Source of the DNA: a plasmid
Strand: one strand, 5' to 3'
Assembly (NCBI RefSeq): GCF_054482595.1
Contig: NZ_JBTHVH010000001.1
Length of the DNA stretch: 64,000 nucleotides
Position numbers and translations under genes: made by a program. The notes beneath the pieces were generated by a model. It saw nothing but the letters and a program-made list of their open reading frames with translations. It was not told the DNA's origin and ran no database searches. The first letter of the stretch is position 1. Each line of letters opens with the position of its first letter. Shown here in pieces: positions 22,002 to 60,990 of the stretch.

Positions 22002-23033
22002 ATGTCCAATTTACTGACCGTACACCAAAATTTGCCTGCATTACCGGTCGATGCAACGAGTGATGAGGTTCGCAAGAACCTGATGGACATGTTCAGGGAT
22101 CGCCAGGCGTTTTCTGAGCATACCTGGAAAATGCTTCTGTCCGTTTGCCGGTCGTGGGCGGCATGGTGCAAGTTGAATAACCGGAAATGGTTTCCCGCAG
22201 AACCTGAAGATGTTCGCGATTATCTTCTATATCTTCAGGCGCGCGGTCTGGCAGTAAAAACTATCCAGCAACATTTGGGCCAGCTAAACATGCTTCATCG
22301 TCGGTCCGGGCTGCCACGACCAAGTGACAGCAATGCTGTTTCACTGGTTATGCGGCGGATCCGAAAAGAAAACGTTGATGCCGGTGAACGTGCAAAACAG
22401 GCTCTAGCGTTCGAACGCACTGATTTCGACCAGGTTCGTTCACTCATGGAAAATAGCGATCGCTGCCAGGATATACGTAATCTGGCATTTCTGGGGATTG
22501 CTTATAACACCCTGTTACGTATAGCCGAAATTGCCAGGATCAGGGTTAAAGATATCTCACGTACTGACGGTGGGAGAATGTTAATCCATATTGGCAGAAC
22601 GAAAACGCTGGTTAGCACCGCAGGTGTAGAGAAGGCACTTAGCCTGGGGGTAACTAAACTAGTCGAGCGATGGATTTCTGTCTCTGGTGTGGCTGATGAT
22701 CCGAATAACTACTTGTTTTGCCGTGTCAGAAAAAATGGCGTAGCTGCGCCATCTGCCACCAGCCAGCTATCAACTCGCGCCCTGGAAGGGATTTTTGAAG
22801 CAACTCATCGATTGATTTACGGCGCTAAGGATGACTCTGGTCAGAGATACCTGGCCTGGTCTGGACACAGTGCCCGTGTCGGAGCCGCGCGAGATATGGC
22901 CCGCGCCGGAGTTTCAATACCGGAGATCATGCAAGCTGGTGGCTGGACCAACGTAAATATTGTCATGAACTATATCCGTAACCTGGATAGTGAAACAGGG
23001 GCAATGGTGCGCCTGCTGGAAGATGGCGATTAG
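22002..23033 (+). CDS. cre: Cre tyrosine recombinase
   Basis: 343-aa protein recognised as P1 Cre across its length. Confidence 0.98.
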   Translation: MSNLLTVHQNLPALPVDATSDEVRKNLMDMFRDRQAFSEHTWKMLLSVCRSWAAWCKLNNRKWFPAEPEDVRDYLLYLQARGLAVKTIQQHLGQLNMLHRRSGLPRPSDSNAVSLVMRRIRKENVDAGERAKQALAFERTDFDQVRSLMENSDRCQDIRNLAFLGIAYNTLLRIAEIARIRVKDISRTDGGRMLIHIGRTKTLVSTAGVEKALSLGVTKLVERWISVSGVADDPNNYLFCRVRKNGVAAPSATSQLSTRALEGIFEATHRLIYGAKDDSGQRYLAWSGHSARVGAARDMARAGVSIPEIMQAGGWTNVNIVMNYIRNLDSETGAMVRLLEDGD

Positions 23034-23395: not shown

Positions 23396-23396
23396 A

Positions 23397-23420
23397 AAAA
23401 GCCTGGCAAGGAGCCAGGCT
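23397..23420 (-). terminator. terminator-like hairpin (minus-strand U-tract)
   Basis: gcctggc aagga gccaggc with A-run on plus strand (T-run on minus). Confidence 0.4.
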
Positions 23421-23526
23421 GCACAAAAGAGCGGGTTTGTATTCCGCATCCAATCAATCAAGAAGGAGTATAGCACACAGGTACTGACGTGAAAAAATAT
23501 GATTCGCGATAAACAAAATACCTATC

Positions 23527-23543
23527 ATTGCTCTAATTGAGCC
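23527..23543 (+). promoter_or_regulatory. C1 operator-like site
   Basis: ATTGCTCTAATTGAGCC. Confidence 0.45.
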
Positions 23544-23623
23544 GCAGTTTTTGTCAACTACGAAGACGTGGCCATTACCTACTCCTTTGAAATCATTGGC
23601 GACCATTAGGCCGCCTTTTTTAA

Positions 23624-24676
23624 TCATTCAGCCGCCACCGGTTTTAACAAGCCAGCATCAAGTAGCTTGCGAGTCAACCACTGCTGGCCTTTACCCGTTA
23701 ATTGGGGCGTCAGCCGTATCTGGTAGCCATTTTCATCATCCAGCACCACTTCTTTCACCGTGAAATACCCGGCGTTGATGTACTGTTGGCGCGGTACGTT
23801 TTTGCGCGCACCAAAAGCCATGAGAATGCCGTTCTGGCGCAACCATGAGAAAAGGGCGTTTTGCTTCAGTCCAACGACCTTTGCAAAGTTCCCGATCAGG
23901 ATTCCATTAGCCACTGATACCCGAACGGCAAAATCGACTTTAGGGGCTGCGGCCACCAGCTGCTGATTTAGCTGGTGGGCTTTCTGTTCCAGAAGTTGCT
24001 TTTGTTCAGCCAGCTCGGCAGCCAGGCGCAGAGCTTCGGGGAGTGTTTGGGGGAGCACTGGAGAAGCAGTGTTAGCCTGCTGCAATTCCTCCAGTTTGTC
24101 GATCAGCGAACGGCGGACCGCTTTTGACTCGCGCGCGGCAACTCGCAGGGCTTGTTTGTAGGTCATGGAGATAGTTTCAGATGTTGTGTTGTTTAATTTT
24201 TGCACTACGAAAATTTCGTAGTACTCACCATCCAGTTCATCCTTAACTCTGGCAATAAAATCATTATTGCGAACTGGTTTTTCGCTGCATAATTTCCGCG
24301 CTTCATTGACCATCTTCAACAATGTTTGGCTGTCTATTGTGTCGCCGCTGTTGGGGATAACATTCACGGCTGGTGCAGTTGTTCCCAAAGACTTCGTAAC
24401 TACAGCGTCTGGTTTGCTTGCTTTCATTCTGTGTGCCTCCTTGCGTGTTTCGGCTGCGACGGTTGCGTAATTCAGATGCCCCTGTTCGAGCAGGTATTCA
24501 CGGATATCGGTTAGCAGAATGCGGTGAACCGCGTGTTTGTCCTTTCTCCGGTAAAGTTGTTTGGTGATCATGAAGTAGTTGGCAATAACGCCTGGTATAT
24601 CCCTGGTACTGATACAGGCAGTGTGCTGTTCAATTGCCTCGATCATCTCTTCACGGGTGACTAATGACGTTCTCAT
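23624..24676 (-). CDS. antirepressor paralog with alternative central domain
   Basis: 350 aa; first ~85 aa and last ~110 aa nearly identical to 18846..19964 product, middle unrelated. Confidence 0.7.
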   Translation of the reverse strand: MRTSLVTREEMIEAIEQHTACISTRDIPGVIANYFMITKQLYRRKDKHAVHRILLTDIREYLLEQGHLNYATVAAETRKEAHRMKASKPDAVVTKSLGTTAPAVNVIPNSGDTIDSQTLLKMVNEARKLCSEKPVRNNDFIARVKDELDGEYYEIFVVQKLNNTTSETISMTYKQALRVAARESKAVRRSLIDKLEELQQANTASPVLPQTLPEALRLAAELAEQKQLLEQKAHQLNQQLVAAAPKVDFAVRVSVANGILIGNFAKVVGLKQNALFSWLRQNGILMAFGARKNVPRQQYINAGYFTVKEVVLDDENGYQIRLTPQLTGKGQQWLTRKLLDAGLLKPVAAE

Positions 24677-24894
24677 AGTCCCTCCTGAGCAGAAGCGTTA
24701 ACAGGGAGGCACCAGTAACTGAGAGAATTGCGCAAATCGGTAGAAAAGCGGGCAGAGAAAATACAGGGAGCATCCGGAAGCTGAGAACGTGCCTCATCTT
24801 CTGTTGGTGCGATAACGAAGTGATAGTGACGTTTCTGGCAGGAGTAAAAGCGCCAGATAAATTCAGGGCGTGCGCAAGGATTGGCATTAACCAT
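24673..24894 (-). CDS. Icd-like small protein, second copy (73 aa)
   Basis: Same architecture as 18628..18849; differs in first ~10 residues. Confidence 0.55.
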   Translation of the reverse strand: MVNANPCARPEFIWRFYSCQKRHYHFVIAPTEDEARSQLPDAPCIFSARFSTDLRNSLSYWCLPVNASAQEGL

Positions 24895-24899
24895 AGTTA

Positions 24900-25205
24900 C
24901 GGCCTCATGTACAGGTTTAACAACCTGCTATCCGCTGCTAAACGGGTGGCAGGACGTGACGGGGTTAGCAGACTGGCGTACATGAAACCAGCAGGCCGAA
25001 GCCTCCCCATCACGCCCCACCATAATTCGGGCGTAACGTGGTTTTACGGACACAAAAATACCGCAATATCGGATATCTGCGGTTGTCCGCATGTACATTC
25101 AGGCTGCTAAACCCGGTCGCAGAATTTGCTACGACGGCGGAACTATAAGCCTGAATGACAGGAAGATCAATAGTCTGGCGTTCAATGGTAGTATTTTTGC
25201 TCCAA
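24900..25205 (-). ncRNA. candidate c4-like antisense RNA region of second module (boundaries not resolved)
   Basis: Leader between operator and icd-like ORF; UUCG-loop hairpin gaggcttcggcct; sequence unrelated to forward-copy leader. Confidence 0.2.
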
Positions 25206-25211
25206 TAAATC

Positions 25212-25228
25212 AAATCTATTAGAGCAAT
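25212..25228 (-). promoter_or_regulatory. C1 operator-like site upstream of second icd/ant module
   Basis: aaatctattagagcaat. Confidence 0.6.
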
Positions 25229-25370
25229 AAATTATTATCCCAAGCTTTACAGTGCGCTGTAAAATTCAAACCTTCGGGTCAGTGGCGGAATCGTATTTCA
25301 CTCACGGAATGAGTATTATTAGTTTTGTCATACATAGCTAGGTAATGAATCACTTGAAGGAACTACGAAC

Positions 25371-26171
25371 ATGTCCGTGACCATTAGCGTCCTGCTGGAA
25401 AACAGACTTAAGCTTGGAGTTAAAAACTCGCTGCGTGCTAAAGCAGGACTTAGTCTGTTGATACAGGATGAAAACGATTCAATCCTGTTTGATACTGGGC
25501 CTGATGATAGCTTCATGTATAACGCAGGTTTAATGGGGGTCGATTTGACAAAACTGACCGCAGTTGTACTTTCCCATGGTCACTATGACCACTGCGGAGG
25601 TGTTCCGTGGATACCAGACACATGCAGGATAATATGCCATCCTATGGTGTCGGATGAGCGCTATTCGGCAATCAGGTTTTTAGGCTATACCGCCAGAATA
25701 AAAAAATTATCATTACATAATGATTTTTCACGTTTCCGCATGGAATACAGCAACACACCATTGCATATCAGTGAGCGTTTTATGTGGTCAGGAGAGATCC
25801 CTGTTGCCAGGCCACGCGCTTACGGTGTTATCGGGTGTAAGAATACGAAAGAAGATTACGTAAAAGATGAGGGGGTTTTAATTTATAAATCAGACTATGG
25901 GTTGATCATTTTTATCGGTTGTGGTCATTGCGGGGTAATTGATATTGTGCGCCACTGCCAAAATATAACCGGGATAAATCATATTCATGCAATTTTTGGT
26001 GGTCTTCATCTGCGCTGTGCGTCCCCTCTTATGCTCTGGAAGGTGAGACAGTTCTTACGCCTTCATAAACCAGATAAGATAATGGGGTGTCATTGTACTG
26101 GCAAATGGGGACGCTTGTGGTTACCGGAATCAACCTCTCCGGCAACAGGTGATGTTTATGTTCTTGGATAG
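25371..26171 (+). CDS. metallo-beta-lactamase-fold hydrolase (266 aa)
   Basis: HxHxDH motif SHGHYDHCGG preceded by ILFDTGPD; lower GC than backbone. Confidence 0.75.
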   Translation: MSVTISVLLENRLKLGVKNSLRAKAGLSLLIQDENDSILFDTGPDDSFMYNAGLMGVDLTKLTAVVLSHGHYDHCGGVPWIPDTCRIICHPMVSDERYSAIRFLGYTARIKKLSLHNDFSRFRMEYSNTPLHISERFMWSGEIPVARPRAYGVIGCKNTKEDYVKDEGVLIYKSDYGLIIFIGCGHCGVIDIVRHCQNITGINHIHAIFGGLHLRCASPLMLWKVRQFLRLHKPDKIMGCHCTGKWGRLWLPESTSPATGDVYVLG

Positions 26172-26488
26172 ACATGGTGCTGTTTCTGTTCATGTCGATT
26201 GTGTGGTTGGGGGCAAGAAAGAATTCACCTTGCTGAATAAGTCAGAGATGGAGTTGCTGGCTGACGCCTATGAGATGGCAAACGTCATGCACTAATAAAT
26301 ATATTATTTTTAATGATAAATGATTGACAACTGACAAGTGACTTCAGCCAGAATCATCACACGCCCGGTACGGATGGATCCCTTTTCAAATATTCCATGG
26401 ACGGCACAGTCTGAGTACCGGGCGCTACCTTCAGTTGTATGTATTGCTAAGCCGCCGCTGGTGGCTTTTCTTTTTTGTAGGGGGCGCT

Positions 26489-27130
26489 ATGGATAAGAAA
26501 ATATGCGTTGTTTCGATGAGCGTCGGCAAACCGGCGTCAATGACTGCTGCATGGATCAATAACGAGCTGATAATGGCTGAGCGGACCAGCTACCCTGAAC
26601 GCCGCCGCGATATGGAACTCCAGCTGCTGCGCGAATTGCGAGAAAAAGAGGAAAAGGGGTTTATCGTGCTGGTGGAAGAGGAAAACAGCTTTATTACTGG
26701 TCGAGTTGGCCAGCGTGTAAGGTTGCGCGATCCCTTCATGAACGGCAGGCCGGTACTAATTGAGGCAATGCAGATTTATAAGGAGTTGGAACGCCAGAAA
26801 GCAATCAAGTTACCGCGCAAGGAATCCGGCAAATACATCCTCCACCAAAGCATCTTCGATTCCGAACACGATAAAAAAGGCGATGAATTTTTCAACATCA
26901 ACTGGAGCGAAATAACGACAGAGCATGTTCTGACGTTACTATGTTGCTTTGCGACGGAATACAACAACGTTGCCAGCGCCGACTACATCAGGGCAATGGC
27001 TGGAGAAGTTGAGGCACGCCAGGAACCATCGTTACTAAGCCCTCTGATTAACATAATTCGCAGAACCCAAACACTGGCGCAAAAACAAGTACCACAAGGG
27101 GAATTGACGGGTAAAGGTAATTATCTCTGA
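26489..27130 (+). CDS. hypothetical protein (213 aa)
   Basis: ATG with AGGGGG SD inside ORF-track ORF 26435..27130; no recognisable motif. Confidence 0.55.
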   Translation: MDKKICVVSMSVGKPASMTAAWINNELIMAERTSYPERRRDMELQLLRELREKEEKGFIVLVEEENSFITGRVGQRVRLRDPFMNGRPVLIEAMQIYKELERQKAIKLPRKESGKYILHQSIFDSEHDKKGDEFFNINWSEITTEHVLTLLCCFATEYNNVASADYIRAMAGEVEARQEPSLLSPLINIIRRTQTLAQKQVPQGELTGKGNYL

Positions 27131-27169
27131 AAGATGCCCGGCGATAGACCGGGCAAAAGGGCGGAAAGT

Positions 27170-27418
27170 TTAATCAGCATTCAGGAGCAATGCGTTATCT
27201 ATGATGATCTGCTCCCATTCTTCGAATGCCCGATCGCGGACGCCCTGGGGAACACTGTTAGTTTTGAAATCGACGACCGTACGCCATTTCCCGTCCGGAC
27301 GGTACATGCGCAGAGCTTTACTTCCCCCTTCCCTGCGCACCTCAACGTTATGCTTGTCAGCAAACTCTTGTAATGCTCGTAACGTCCCATGCTTTACTGT
27401 GTAGTATCGCTTTTTCAA
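27170..27418 (-). CDS. lxc: Lxc/Bof-like C1 co-repressor modulator
   Basis: 82-aa ORF downstream of darB-ulx on same strand; assignment by size and synteny. Confidence 0.5.
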   Translation of the reverse strand: MKKRYYTVKHGTLRALQEFADKHNVEVRREGGSKALRMYRPDGKWRTVVDFKTNSVPQGVRDRAFEEWEQIIIDNALLLNAD

Positions 27419-27855
27419 GTTTTCTCTCCAGCCTGTGCCAAGGCTTCAACTTCCAAATCATAAGACTCAAACTCATAGTCCTGGTCGTCAACTTCTTCAG
27501 GCACTGGCAGTAAATGCCAGGCTGAGTATATCTGACCATTATCAAAACGCTCCTGGCTGTAGAGCGTAGCGGCTATGAGTGTTAGCGCCGGGCGGTCATA
27601 ACGGTAAATTTTGCGAACGTCACGGTCAACGAGACGACCGAAATTACCATAACCGCGCTCCAGTAATAATTTTTTAATTTCCGGCCAGTATGGACCATAG
27701 CTGCGGTACAGGCGGGGATTTTTCAGTAATCGCCCGCGTAGCCCTGACAGGAAGAAATCAACGTATTCGTCTTCTGTCTTTCCTAACAACGCCGTACGCA
27801 GTACCGCCTCAAGATATGTTTTATTCGGTTTTATTGTATCAGATAGTGTGGCCAT
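27415..27855 (-). CDS. ulx: Ulx-like protein (darB operon)
   Basis: 146-aa ORF between darB and lxc; synteny-based. Confidence 0.45.
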   Translation of the reverse strand: MATLSDTIKPNKTYLEAVLRTALLGKTEDEYVDFFLSGLRGRLLKNPRLYRSYGPYWPEIKKLLLERGYGNFGRLVDRDVRKIYRYDRPALTLIAATLYSQERFDNGQIYSAWHLLPVPEEVDDQDYEFESYDLEVEALAQAGEKT

Positions 27856-56846: not shown

Positions 56847-57202
56847 AGCACCACGTCCTGTGTGATAGTTATATCCCTGATACGAATGGATATTTTCAAC
56901 TTATCAAAAGCATCTCCCTCGGCTACTGACAAGCCAGAAATCGGTATGTCAGGTAAATCTACCGTCAGTTTTTGCAACAGCATTGCCTCAACCGCAATTT
57001 GAACATGCGACAAGTTGGTCGGTTCGTGTTTAAACTGCGGTAAAACATTGCCCCATGACGGATCTCCGTATACCTCACCCTGATAAGTGTTTAGCCACTC
57101 ATATAAACGAGCGCCCCAGGCCTCCTCCTGGGACTCATACGTTTTTACGCCGGATAACTCCAGCGTCAGCAAAGGATCAATTTCGTTATTGTTGGCCATC
57201 AA
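56843..57202 (-). CDS. baseplate wedge (gp25/W-like) protein
   Basis: 119-aa ORF between sit and baseplate J-like gene. Confidence 0.4.
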   Translation of the reverse strand: MMANNNEIDPLLTLELSGVKTYESQEEAWGARLYEWLNTYQGEVYGDPSWGNVLPQFKHEPTNLSHVQIAVEAMLLQKLTVDLPDIPISGLSVAEGDAFDKLKISIRIRDITITQDVVL

Positions 57203-60200
57203 TCAACTCTCGCGTAGTCATTCATCAACGGATCATCAATTGACAGTGGTACCGTGCGCATAACGCCCGGCTGAGGCGTGCTGACCTTTACGACAGTTCC
57301 CTGGCCTTTCGCCGAGTCTTTGGTGTGCTCTTCAATCCTGGCAAGCAATGAGGTCATCTGCGCAAACAGCCGCTTCGTTTCACCATCAAGTGAAACGGTA
57401 TTATCAGCCAACTGCATTGTCGGCTTGGCACCGGAACCGCCAAGGTCACTAATAACCTGCCCGTCTATCTGCATACGACCGGTTGGTTGCTGCAAATCGT
57501 TGGCGGCAGTCGTCACCTTGGACGTGGAGGCTGGTTCAGGCGCATTATTTTTCCGCATCCCCGGCGAGTTGCGGAGTTTATCGAATAGTCCATCAATCCC
57601 CATTTGTGCGCCGAGTTGGTCAAAGTAACTTGAGTTGCTGGCCACCGGACGCGCCTCTTCAACTGGCATCGGAATATCAACATACACATTGCCAGCTGCT
57701 GTTGCGGTCCCCTTCCCTCGTGCACGTTCTTCGAGCGTTCCCTGAACGACTTCCCGACGCATACCCCGGCCATTCATGAATTTGTTGACCAGATCGTTAA
57801 CGCCAACAGCATTGCCGATTTTGTCTACCAGACCGCCTTTCTCAAACGGGCTATCACCAGGGGTAAACGCCAGGCCAGTAGACTGATCGATAACAGCGTT
57901 ATCAGGCAGTGGTCCCCTCACTCCATATTGCGCCCCACCCTGTGCTCCTGCTCCAGGTGTATAGATTTCACCACCTAAATAGCGAGCACGATGAGTATTG
58001 ACCTTGATCGCGTACTCACGGTTTTCTTTCGATAAGTCACCTGTGCCTTTTTTCCACTTATTGATAGTGCCAAACCCAGCGTTATATGCAGTGATGGCCT
58101 CGTTTAAGTCTCCATTGGCTTGCTTCAGATACTTGCTCATGAGAAGAGCCGCAGCTTCTGCCGATTTCACAGGATCAAACGATTCACCTTCAGCTAAGCC
58201 AGTCTCTTCACGAGCAATCCCCGTGAACTGAAACATTCCCAGAGCACCGGTTTGGGATTTTGCATACGGATTACCACCAGATTCAGTTGCAGCAATCGCG
58301 TAAAGAGTGCCTTCTGGAAGACCATATTTATTCTCTAGTTCAGCAAAATACGGAGCCAACTTATCGAGATTTGCCTTACCTTCAGATCCAAGACTTCCGA
58401 CTTTTACATCCAAGCGGCCATTGTTGTAGGTATCCGCAGCTTTCTGAATGTCACTCCTGGTGCCAGTGGTATTAAGCGACGATGATGACGAGCTATTTTG
58501 ACCAATAGCTTTATCAATTTTCTGCAACGCGCTATTGCCCGTTTCTACGGCATTTGCATTGATAATCTGATTCGCAGTTTCTTTAACTGTTTTATTGCTA
58601 TCTTTCGCCGTGTCCAGTGCCGCATTTATCACGCGGGTAACAATATTAGTCTGTTTGGCATCGGATTCAGTTTTAGAATCAGATGTCTCCTGGTGGCTAT
58701 TAACCGGAGCTTTTAACTCTGGAGTGATTTCTTTGGCATTAGCCTCGCTATTAACCGGAGCTTTTAACTGTGGAGCGATTTCTTTCGCATTAGCCTCGCT
58801 ATTAACCGGAGCTTTTAACTCTGGAGTGATTTCTTTCGCATTAGCCTCGCCGATCGGATTGGGTATTTTTGATACAATCATTGCCGCAGGGGTATTTTTA
58901 ACGGCATCAACCGCTGCATCTAATGCTTTACCAGGTAAATTTTTAACCCCATCCCAAATATTACCAGCCGCCTCTTTAATGTGTTTCCCTGGGTTCTTAA
59001 TGAAATCAATTGCACTATCAATTGCATCACTGAAAACCTGTTTCAGGTTATCAACAGTAAAGAAGTCTTTGATGGCATCCAGCTTTTCAAGCAGCTTATT
59101 AGATGTATCGCTAAACCATGCTGAAACAGCATCACCAATCTTTGCTGTGTAATCTTCGAACTTGGTAGAAATGGTGTCGCCAAGGTTAGAAATATATGTT
59201 TCTAAGTTGGTAATCCCACTATCAATGGCCTGGGCAATACTTTCCGTCGAAAATGATTGCAACATATTGCCGATATCCTCAAATCCAAGTGATTTGAGAA
59301 CCTCACCAATGGCGCTGCTAATACCAGATACCAGTCCCCCCATATCAAGAACATTGGCTAACGTATAAGCGGCTTTTTGCTGGAATGATGGATCTTGTCC
59401 TGATTTAAGCCCAAACGCTCGACGTTGCGCTTCTGTATCATTCCAACCGGTTACCGCATCATAAATACCTCCAGCCACTGTGCCGACTAAGGGAATTGCG
59501 CGTAACGCCCCTTTACCAACTGCCTTTAATCCAAGTTTACCTGCTGCCCGGGCAGCCAAATCTCCACCTTCATGGGCGATAGTCTTCTTGCCACCACCGC
59601 GTAGCATTCCTACAAGTTTCTTTGCCCCCAGAGCGCCAAAAGCGAGTGCTCCAGCTTTTTTCAGCATGCCACGCCCCATTAACAACGACGCGACGCCACC
59701 GGCCCCCTTCCCTAACAGGCTAAATAGTTTGGACAGCAAGCCGCCCTTCTTTTTCCCGGTGTTTTTGGCTATCTGATCAAGGGCGCTGAGAATCTTGTCA
59801 TTGCCCTCTTTAATTTCGCTGGTCTGCTCCTGAAGTTCCTGAACTGTCCGTTTTTGGGTGTTAACCTGAACGACATCGGCACTATTTTGCGATTTACGCC
59901 TAAAAAAACCTTTTCTACGGCTGTTATCGTCATTGCCACGAATCACATCGGCAATAGACTTTCTGGCACCATTAAGCGATCCACCAACTTCTTTTGATAT
60001 CCCGCCAAGCTCCTTCCCTGCTGCCCACAATGGACCAGCAACGGCATAACCTAACGCATCAACGGCACGAGTCTCTGAAGGGTTACCTATGCCTTCAGCT
60101 ACTTTTGACAGTTTTTTTAATAAACCTGATTCAGCATTTAGACGCTCATCATCCTCTTTACGCCTGGCCTTTTCAGCACGTTCAGCACGGGCATCTTCCG

Positions 60201-60990
60201 CTGCGGCCTTACTCCCTGACTTTCCAATAAAACGACCACGCGCATCGCGTTGGTTTTGGCTTTTTTGCGCACCGCCTTTTTGATCGAACATTTCGCGAGC
60301 GTGTTCGGCTGCTTCGGTCCGTTGTGCCTTTATATCCTCTGGTATAGCCTTCCTGCGTCGTTTTTTACCCTTTGGTGTAGTTGATTTGGCCTGCTGTTCC
60401 TGTTGAGCAATGCCCTCCTGAACTACACGAGAAACGTCCCCTAAATTAAGCCGTTTCATTGCGTCAACAATAGGGTCTACTGATGGCGCATTGGCCACAA
60501 AGTCTGGCCGGGAATTTTCGATTGTTCGATTTAATGCCGACACACTGCGAGATACTGGGTCAACCGTTGCAACGCGTTCCCCTTTCAAATCACGAGCGAG
60601 TTTAACCGTTTCTAACCGCTGTGCTTTAACATCCTCTGTTATTGCCTCTCTTCGTCTATTTGGGGGATTGTGCGCTGTTGGTGCAGCCTGCTGTGCACGG
60701 TTAGTGACTTTGTCCTCCCGTATACGAGAAACGTCCCCTAAATTAAGCCGTTTTATTGCGTCAACAATAGGGTCCACTGATGGCGCATTGGTCACAAAGT
60801 CAGGACGTGAATTTTCGATTGTGCGATTTAATGCCGACACACTGCGAGAGACAGGATCAACAGTTGCAACTCGTTCCCCTTTCAAATCTTCAACAGCTTC
60901 CCGAATACCTGCAAGCTCTTCCAGCTCTTTCGCGCTGGCGGTTTCAACTGTCCTTATAACATCGTCAATATTGGCGTTTTTTCTTTCCAT
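57199..60990 (-). CDS. sit: injection transglycosylase / tape-measure-like protein with SLT domain
   Basis: 1263 aa; lytic transglycosylase motif YAIAATESGGNPYAKSQTGALGMFQFT; internal tandem repeats. Confidence 0.7.
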   Translation of the reverse strand: MERKNANIDDVIRTVETASAKELEELAGIREAVEDLKGERVATVDPVSRSVSALNRTIENSRPDFVTNAPSVDPIVDAIKRLNLGDVSRIREDKVTNRAQQAAPTAHNPPNRRREAITEDVKAQRLETVKLARDLKGERVATVDPVSRSVSALNRTIENSRPDFVANAPSVDPIVDAMKRLNLGDVSRVVQEGIAQQEQQAKSTTPKGKKRRRKAIPEDIKAQRTEAAEHAREMFDQKGGAQKSQNQRDARGRFIGKSGSKAAAEDARAERAEKARRKEDDERLNAESGLLKKLSKVAEGIGNPSETRAVDALGYAVAGPLWAAGKELGGISKEVGGSLNGARKSIADVIRGNDDNSRRKGFFRRKSQNSADVVQVNTQKRTVQELQEQTSEIKEGNDKILSALDQIAKNTGKKKGGLLSKLFSLLGKGAGGVASLLMGRGMLKKAGALAFGALGAKKLVGMLRGGGKKTIAHEGGDLAARAAGKLGLKAVGKGALRAIPLVGTVAGGIYDAVTGWNDTEAQRRAFGLKSGQDPSFQQKAAYTLANVLDMGGLVSGISSAIGEVLKSLGFEDIGNMLQSFSTESIAQAIDSGITNLETYISNLGDTISTKFEDYTAKIGDAVSAWFSDTSNKLLEKLDAIKDFFTVDNLKQVFSDAIDSAIDFIKNPGKHIKEAAGNIWDGVKNLPGKALDAAVDAVKNTPAAMIVSKIPNPIGEANAKEITPELKAPVNSEANAKEIAPQLKAPVNSEANAKEITPELKAPVNSHQETSDSKTESDAKQTNIVTRVINAALDTAKDSNKTVKETANQIINANAVETGNSALQKIDKAIGQNSSSSSSLNTTGTRSDIQKAADTYNNGRLDVKVGSLGSEGKANLDKLAPYFAELENKYGLPEGTLYAIAATESGGNPYAKSQTGALGMFQFTGIAREETGLAEGESFDPVKSAEAAALLMSKYLKQANGDLNEAITAYNAGFGTINKWKKGTGDLSKENREYAIKVNTHRARYLGGEIYTPGAGAQGGAQYGVRGPLPDNAVIDQSTGLAFTPGDSPFEKGGLVDKIGNAVGVNDLVNKFMNGRGMRREVVQGTLEERARGKGTATAAGNVYVDIPMPVEEARPVASNSSYFDQLGAQMGIDGLFDKLRNSPGMRKNNAPEPASTSKVTTAANDLQQPTGRMQIDGQVISDLGGSGAKPTMQLADNTVSLDGETKRLFAQMTSLLARIEEHTKDSAKGQGTVVKVSTPQPGVMRTVPLSIDDPLMNDYARVD

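Follow-up and report, generated by a model that had tools for sequence, protein, structure and literature searches.

The gene mat (maturation control) of a P1-type phage-plasmid is preceded by a conserved, structured 5' leader that ends in an intrinsic terminator, placed directly ahead of the Shine-Dalgarno (SD) sequence and the start codon of the gene. We studied this leader in a window of 64,000 nucleotides (nt), the whole stretch of plasmid DNA that was analyzed (NCBI RefSeq assembly GCF_054482595.1, contig NZ_JBTHVH010000001.1). On balance, we favor a reading in which the mat leader is a cis-acting attenuator and insulator that gates mat and yields a short terminated RNA. An earlier note on this DNA had seen a small open reading frame (ORF) and nested inverted repeats between two cargo genes, and had suggested a small regulator or a structured RNA element of the module around a metallo-beta-lactamase (MBL)-fold hydrolase gene. 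The gene downstream is mat, a P1 backbone gene; the structured RNA element is supported, but it belongs to mat and not to the MBL module, and it extends to the terminator.

A reference phage, P1 is also the prototype of a phage-plasmid family that is very common; of 5426 complete E. coli genomes, about 690 carry the mat region. We came across no account of a leader, terminator or small RNA (sRNA) at mat in the searchable literature, a search that did not extend to the key P1 genome paper, and an earlier mention is possible; a paper on RNA-seq of P1vir does not mention mat or ref. The mat leader is apparently undescribed, and the small ORF had already been annotated as a pseudogene. The analysis suggests that a predicted terminase-like nuclease gene beside the cargo hotspot at ref is under a further layer of control and insulation, a concrete proposal that can be tested.

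Structure and conservation of the mat leader

The strongest feature of the leader lies just past the end of the region that the earlier note had singled out. It is a hairpin at 26449-26467 followed by TTCTTTTTT, with an 8-bp stem (5 GC pairs), a 3-nt loop and a U-tract, and it also passes a stricter rule for intrinsic terminators. The terminator at 26449 is the first one downstream of the MBL gene, none being found earlier, and its stem ends 22 nt ahead of the mat ATG. The layout is that of an attenuator, with a promoter upstream of the terminator and the SD sequence and ATG of mat 13-22 nt after it. The P1 record contains no terminator features at all in positions 1-30000, so the absence of one at mat is uninformative.

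The promoters were assigned from the P1 annotation (NC_005856 / AF234172) and from consensus, and window coordinates equal P1 coordinates plus 23658 as far as a 4-bp insertion. Positions 26186-27130 of the window are 95% identical to P1 2528-3423, and the operator, the -35 element, the -22 box and the -10 element are identical or nearly so. The -22 box of LPmat matches those of LPpro (AAGTGACTA) and LPlyz (AAGTGATTT), and it is kept in JK004, L099-L102 and L086. Judging from the position of the -10 element, transcription would start at about 26361. Leader RNA and terminator are absent from the list of P1 features, and the window differs from P1 in its cargo-truncated ref and in a GTAT duplication in the linker (Table 1).

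Table 1. Features of the region from the MBL gene to mat, in window coordinates
Feature	Position	Strand	Basis and remarks
MBL-fold hydrolase gene (cargo)	25371..26171	+	Pfam Lactamase_B, E 2.6e-15; 3' end overlaps the small ORF
47-codon ORF, chimeric	26152..26295	+	MBL cassette (codons 1-7), junction (about 4 codons), ref 3' end (remainder)
ref remnant (pseudogene), the C-terminal ~37 codons of the gene for the RecA-dependent nuclease Ref (186 aa)	26182..26295	+	Pfam, P1 alignment, PGAP
C1 repressor operator Omat	26286..26303	-	carried over from P1 annotation 2628-2645, sequence identical; overlaps the ref stop codon
Pmat -35, TTGACA	26324-26329	+	P1 annotation
Late-promoter (LPmat) -22 box, AAGTGACTT	26336-26344	+	P1 annotation
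-10, CAGAAT, common to Pmat and LPmat	26349-26354	+	P1 annotation
mat leader 5' domain	26362..26424	+	closing helix and two hairpins; RNAalifold, covariation
ATG from which the P1 reference annotation starts mat (250-aa form)	26374..26376	+	window frame from here stops at 26496
Variable linker	26425..26448	+	GTAT tandem duplication 26437-26440 relative to P1
Intrinsic (Rho-independent) terminator	26449..26476	+	stem AAGCCGCC/GGTGGCTT, loop GCT, U-tract TTTTCTTTTTT
SD G-run GGGGG (26480-26484) and mat ATG (26489-26491)	26480..26491	+	sequence; PGAP, JK004 and D6 annotations
mat (maturation control), 213 aa, P1 backbone gene	26489..27130	+	95% amino acid identity to P1 Mat

Upstream of the linker, the 5' domain is closed by a helix in which CGCCCGGTAC (26362-26371) pairs with GTACCGGGCG (26415-26424) at 10 of 10 positions, with 43 nt between the arms. 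This helix encloses hairpin 1, formed by ATGGA (26374-26378) and TCCAT (26394-26398) around the loop UCCCUUUUCAAAUAU, and hairpin 2, formed by GGC (26403-26405) and GUC (26409-26411). Among dinucleotide shuffles of 26296-26488, 0.85% contained a perfect inverted repeat of 10 nt or more. The outer repeat reported in the earlier note (cccggtac...gtaccggg) is part of the closing helix, real and longer than had been claimed. For the inner repeat the picture was mixed: a helix exists, as ATGGA/TCCAT, but tccatgga is a self-palindrome and the ccatgga 5' arm that had been proposed is not there.

Seventeen distinct P1-type leaders, with Mat identity down to 57%, were used for the structural comparison. 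RNAalifold and a hand-drawn structure agreed on four helices, namely the closing helix, the two small hairpins and the terminator. The closing helix was 98% paired in these leaders, compared with 35-43% for slid-partner controls. Four of its ten pairs had changed on both sides (CG, UA, AU; GC, AU; UA, CG; AU, GC), with G-U intermediates, and its covariation score was reached by 0 of 500 shuffles. Across 80 P1-like loci the diversity pi was 0.007 in the 5' domain and 0.006 in the terminator, versus 0.029 at codon position 2 and 0.14 at codon position 3 of mat. The loop motifs (UCCCUUUUCAAAU, GGACGGCACA) were invariant among the P1-type leaders, and a covariance model of the P1-type 5' domain had a single match in the window (88 bits). 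A scan of 24600-27600 with Rfam 15 at E<=1 returned no match on the leader element; its matches all lay at 24942-25148 on the minus strand and comprised C4, c4-a1b1, isrK and a chance miRNA.

Neither the length nor the sequence of the linker is conserved among P1-type leaders. Of the 695 E. coli records that matched, only 2 have the GTAT duplication of the window (the CP093011 chromosome and the CP060930 plasmid), and it is in 0 of the 12 records that share the MBL/ref junction of the window, which thus unites two rare features.

Outside the P1 type, we used a family sample of 14 mat loci (P1 type, JK004, D6 type, and metagenomic or genomic contigs) whose Mat proteins are mutually ~25-75% identical, with Mat identity falling to ~25-40% in the most distant. 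A strict intrinsic terminator with its stem end 19-35 nt before the mat ATG was present in 13 of these 14 divergent loci, and its stems differ from locus to locus (AAGCCGC, AGGCCGC, ATGCCACC, AACCGCC, AGACCGC, AGGCTGCC). The terminator background was 1.25e-4 per nt per strand, and a site at the same position preceded 2 of the 73 long ORFs of the window. The terminator is retained where the upstream gene is divergent (D6, L096, L097), and JK004 carries a separate terminator upstream of the promoter; for these reasons we rejected the possibility that the terminator is merely the upstream gene's own. In all 14 loci the leader is long, contains no genes and folds into long-range helices, and on this comparison the leader layout is ancient. 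Independent cargo junctions in relatives all fall between ~26179 and ~26320, left of the -35 element; the promoter and everything to its right have therefore been retained as one unit. An RfaH ops-like motif, GCGGTAG, was seen in the D6 leader and was discarded as a candidate, being conserved neither in L093 nor in the P1 type.

Proposed action of the leader and its alternatives

In the mechanism that we favor, transcription from the C1-repressed Pmat and the Lpa-dependent LPmat would begin at the foot of the closing helix. Most polymerases, whether they come from Pmat/LPmat or read through from ref or cargo genes (the MBL gene, for example), would stop at the terminator and release an RNA of ~105-115 nt, which its base-paired 5' end would stabilize. 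Mat would then be made only from read-through transcripts, and in the window the terminator would also shield mat from transcription of the cargo. We infer both termination in vivo and the gating function.

Several points weigh against this proposal. We found no published transcription-start, termination or Northern data for the mat leader. The minimum-free-energy, centroid and RNAalifold structures contain no conserved antiterminator pairing and the linker is variable, and the leader could be a constant 'dimmer' instead of a switch. The single-sequence folding energy is ordinary (z = -0.66 and -1.6), so that the folding check proposed in the earlier note gave conserved helices by comparison but an unremarkable energy; the case for RNA structure is one of comparison with relatives, not of folding energy. 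The covariation itself comes from few lineages, with an effective sequence number of ~2. Finally, when the covariance model of the P1-type 5' domain was run against D6-type and more distant leaders, the best matches had E>=1 and lay in the wrong places. By this search, the particular 5' domain is specific to the P1 subgroup and only the layout is family-wide.

The leader resembles several known systems in part. Like the lambdoid PR'/6S or StxS/tR' units, it combines a late or lytic promoter, a strong intrinsic terminator within ~110 nt and lytic genes downstream, with a short structured RNA as the predicted by-product (PMC7547250). It differs from the lambda Q unit in that no Q-like protein or Q-binding element was identified, in an analysis that included no search aimed at Q homologs. 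Compared with the lambdoid case, Lpa activates the late promoters of P1 at many sites, and the other annotated ones that were checked, LPpro and LPlyz, have short leaders. The unit would control a single gene, mat, in P1, and mat together with baseplate and tail genes in D6-like relatives. With classical attenuators and riboswitches it shares a long structured 5' leader and an intrinsic terminator directly ahead of the SD sequence and start codon; it differs from them in the missing alternative pairing, the lack of an Rfam match and the variable linker. A riboswitch-type antiterminator was dropped as a candidate, given that a competing conserved helix is absent and that the linker varies.

An alternative that we consider unlikely is that 26361 to ~26476 is primarily a stand-alone gene for a trans-acting sRNA, which would pair with host or phage mRNAs as StxS does on its release from the PR'-tR' unit of Shiga-toxin phage, read-through into mat being secondary. 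The anatomy fits that of an enterobacterial sRNA, with a 5' stem at +1, single-stranded loop motifs and a terminator hairpin with a long U-tail, and the invariance of the loops among P1-type leaders means that sequence and structure are both constrained. There is also a precedent in which early termination after a phage late promoter gives a regulatory sRNA (PMC7547250). However, the unit is fused directly to the mat SD sequence in 13 of the 14 divergent loci, which points to a role in cis, and the loop motifs are not kept outside the P1 subgroup. The 64-kb window yielded no complementary target: a search with the complements of the two conserved loops gave one-mismatch matches within chance expectation, located either in coding repeats of an ORF of 1263 aa on the minus strand or on the strand that is not transcribed. 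That minus-strand ORF (57199-60990) contains a direct repeat at 60578-60590 and 60875-60887, ~297 bp apart, which includes a 12/13 match to a leader loop motif and appears to be an internal coding repeat.

Another reading, drawn by analogy with HK022 and slightly less probable, takes the 5' domain as a put-type cis antiterminator. Polymerases from Pmat/LPmat, made terminator-resistant by transcribing the domain, would pass the terminator and those derived from upstream, which lack it, would stop, so that the terminator would insulate mat from the cargo hotspot without blocking the gene's own promoter. The likeness to put, an antiterminator RNA that needs no factor, lies in a promoter-proximal RNA rich in stem-loops, with terminators downstream and no competing antiterminator hairpin; for the mat leader such a function is hypothetical. 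The predicted +1 is where the domain begins, and no stretch is more constrained than the domain with its loops; the terminator has no competing hairpin, the linker can vary freely, and the cargo hotspot lies immediately upstream. The predicted fold of Mat is that of a nuclease and not of a Q- or N-like factor, and we know of no antiterminator protein in P1. Against these points, the reading is one of analogy, with no similarity to any Rfam family; distant relatives retain the terminator but have unrelated 5' domains, and in D6, L096 and L097 the upstream gene is divergent, leaving little to insulate against.

The sRNA and put-like readings could each coexist with the attenuator reading. One such combination, of low but appreciable probability in our view, is a promoter-proximal RNA switch at mat that has been overlooked. 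In it the 5' domain would be a put-like or factor-binding antitermination signal that only Pmat/LPmat transcripts use to pass the terminator, at which everything transcribed from the neighboring cargo hotspot would otherwise be blocked, and the terminated product of ~110 nt may be an sRNA as well. If this were true, control of terminator read-through would join C1 repression and Lpa activation in P1 lytic regulation, and it would explain how a terminase-like nuclease stays silent beside repeated insertions of foreign genes with their own promoters.

It is very improbable that the inverted repeats act as DNA, as a palindromic protein site or a cruciform. A perfect 10-bp palindrome-type repeat does lie near the promoter and the C1 operator, but the arms vary by compensation, with G-U-type intermediates that pair only in plus-strand RNA (alignment columns 12/62, 13/61 and 5/69), whereas a dimer-binding site would keep its sequence. 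The annotated C1 operator is elsewhere, at Omat, and the spacing between the arms is long for a protein site.

The start codon of mat and the Mat protein

The P1 reference annotation starts mat at an ATG inside the leader. A good SD sequence precedes the ATG at 26489 and none precedes the one at 26374. Across 83 P1-like loci, the distance from the upstream ATG to the ATG of the MDKK start is 109, 110, 111, 112 or 115 nt, and the two are in frame in only 36 of the 83, with the indels located in the G-run of the SD sequence; a frame that is open and continuous with mat is thus not kept across relatives. The annotated start in JK004, in D6 and by the Prokaryotic Genome Annotation Pipeline (PGAP) is that of the short form of ~213 aa. 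An exhaustive profile search gave 157 Mat clusters, nearly all of 200-225 aa and aligned from residue 1. Because of the GTAT duplication, the 36 of 83 loci in frame, the short-form annotations and the family length, we consider the P1 mat start to be wrong: by comparison with its relatives, mat is a gene of 213 aa and not 250, and the P1 annotation begins it 111 nt too early. The upstream ATG not being the real start, 26355-26488 is 5' leader and not coding sequence. This corrects the P1 reference annotation of mat, in which a conserved leader RNA with its terminator had been hidden inside a coding sequence.

It is hardly credible, in turn, that 26374-26488 encodes an N-terminal extension of 37 aa in a 250-aa Mat, in which case the window would carry a frameshifted mat. 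Both P1 records (NC_005856, AF234172) annotate mat from the ATG equivalent to 26374, and gene callers give forms of 247-262 aa in some relatives (P0001, P0009, P0012, P0016, P0037). The frame, however, is disrupted by the G-run indels and by the 4-bp duplication of the window, and 1-2-nt indels are needed to align the P1-type leaders. The Mat family alignment starts at MDKK, the only good SD sequence belongs to the short form, and the substitutions in the leader are compensatory in RNA helices.

The SD G-run itself varies between 3, 4 and 5 G among near-identical P1-like elements (L006-L085), about half of which have 4 G; the cause could be sequencing error in a homopolymer, or the variation could be real and adjust translation. 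Mat has no Pfam match. Its AlphaFold2 model resembles the nuclease fold of large terminases, and the prediction from this model is a terminase-like nuclease with an RNase H fold. In D6 (L004), L091, L093, L095 and L098, mat is followed directly by a gene of ~110 aa and a gene of ~400 aa; those of D6 are homologs of the P1 baseplate and tail genes 26 and 25. In these distant relatives the leader and terminator stand at the head of a morphogenesis operon. In P1 and in the window, res/mod or other cargo and lxc-darB lie between mat and genes 26/25.

The small ORF, the ref remnant and the inserted block

The 47-codon ORF reported in the earlier note exists. It runs from ATG 26152 to TAA 26293-26295 (47 aa, or 48 aa from GTG 26149) and overlaps the 3' end of the MBL gene, which ends at 26171. 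Its size is unremarkable, since the window contains 232 ATG-initiated ORFs of at least 47 codons. ORF residues 8-43 match model positions 67-102 of 103 in Pfam PF16786 (RecA_dep_nuc; E 2e-9), the DNA of the ORF aligns to the 3' end of P1 ref (2077-2637), the ORF stop is the ref stop, and from VHVDC onward 32 of 35 residues are identical to P1 Ref. Homology with P1 starts at ~26179-26186, equivalent to ref codon ~150. On the other side, alignments with MBL homologs on Enterobacter, Citrobacter and Edwardsiella plasmids reach only ~26171. As MBL homology ends at the MBL stop and P1 homology starts at ~26179-26186, the ORF is a chimera across an insertion scar.

Sequence homology to the Ref family (PF16786) is clear. 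Compared with full-length members, however, the remnant lacks its own promoters and ~150 residues at the N-terminus, among them the conserved core rich in Cys and His. In CP086223, the PGAP annotation of 26182-26295 is that of a Ref pseudogene ('incomplete... missing N-terminus'). The replacement by the block left the last ~37 codons of ref, and by chance an ATG in the MBL 3' end opens that frame. By these homologies the 47-codon ORF is a non-functional leftover of ref and not a gene, and it has no consequence except as a marker of the insertion scar.

The least credible reading of all is the one put forward in the earlier note, that the ORF codes for a small regulatory protein belonging to an MBL 'module': it is open, has an ATG and is 100% identical across 12 complete E. 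coli genomes with the identical MBL/ref junction (also present in eight PLSDB plasmids), but these copies, with 100% nucleotide identity, represent a single recent lineage and so give no evidence of selection, the body of the ORF is the non-catalytic C-terminal tail of Ref, the PGAP call is that of a pseudogene, ORFs of similar size are common in the window, and free-standing MBL homologs of other genera are without the ORF.

The scar lies at the right edge of a block of ~2.8 kb (~23396-26185), which holds an ant-like gene, icd, a C4 RNA with its targets and the MBL gene. It stands in place of P1 1830-2527, a part that comprises the ref promoters and the 5' two-thirds of ref. To the left of the block lie the genes for Cre (22002-23033) and C8 (23084-23395) of the P1-type backbone, and to the right follow those for Lxc, Ulx and DarB; from 26186 rightwards the identity with P1, RCS47, P7 and SJ46 is 95-97%. 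Between c8 and the MBL gene, at 23624-25148 on the minus strand, the block contains an immI-type module, with a C4 antisense RNA (24942-25027, 71.7 bits), a1/b1 targets (25096-25148) that overlap a sub-threshold isrK match, an icd-like gene and a gene for a 350-aa KilAC/ANT antirepressor.

A PADLOC search with the MBL protein, the 47-codon ORF and Mat gave as its sole match RTasMBL for the MBL protein, with a non-significant E of 0.006. The homologs on Enterobacter, Citrobacter and Edwardsiella plasmids have 83-87% nucleotide identity with the MBL gene, and their presence on plasmids of several genera indicates that the gene moves between replicons.

The ref locus is a hotspot that receives defence, resistance and other accessory genes. 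Relatives in which it serves as a cargo site include P7, SJ46, Ro157c2, E. albertii plasmids, L008, L012 and L059, and their cargo includes RelA/SpoT-family and DUF4145 genes among others. The junctions fall into several independent classes: ref may be intact, or the junction may lie at the ref stop / Omat edge or a short way upstream of the -35 element; in every class the mat promoter, leader and terminator are undamaged.

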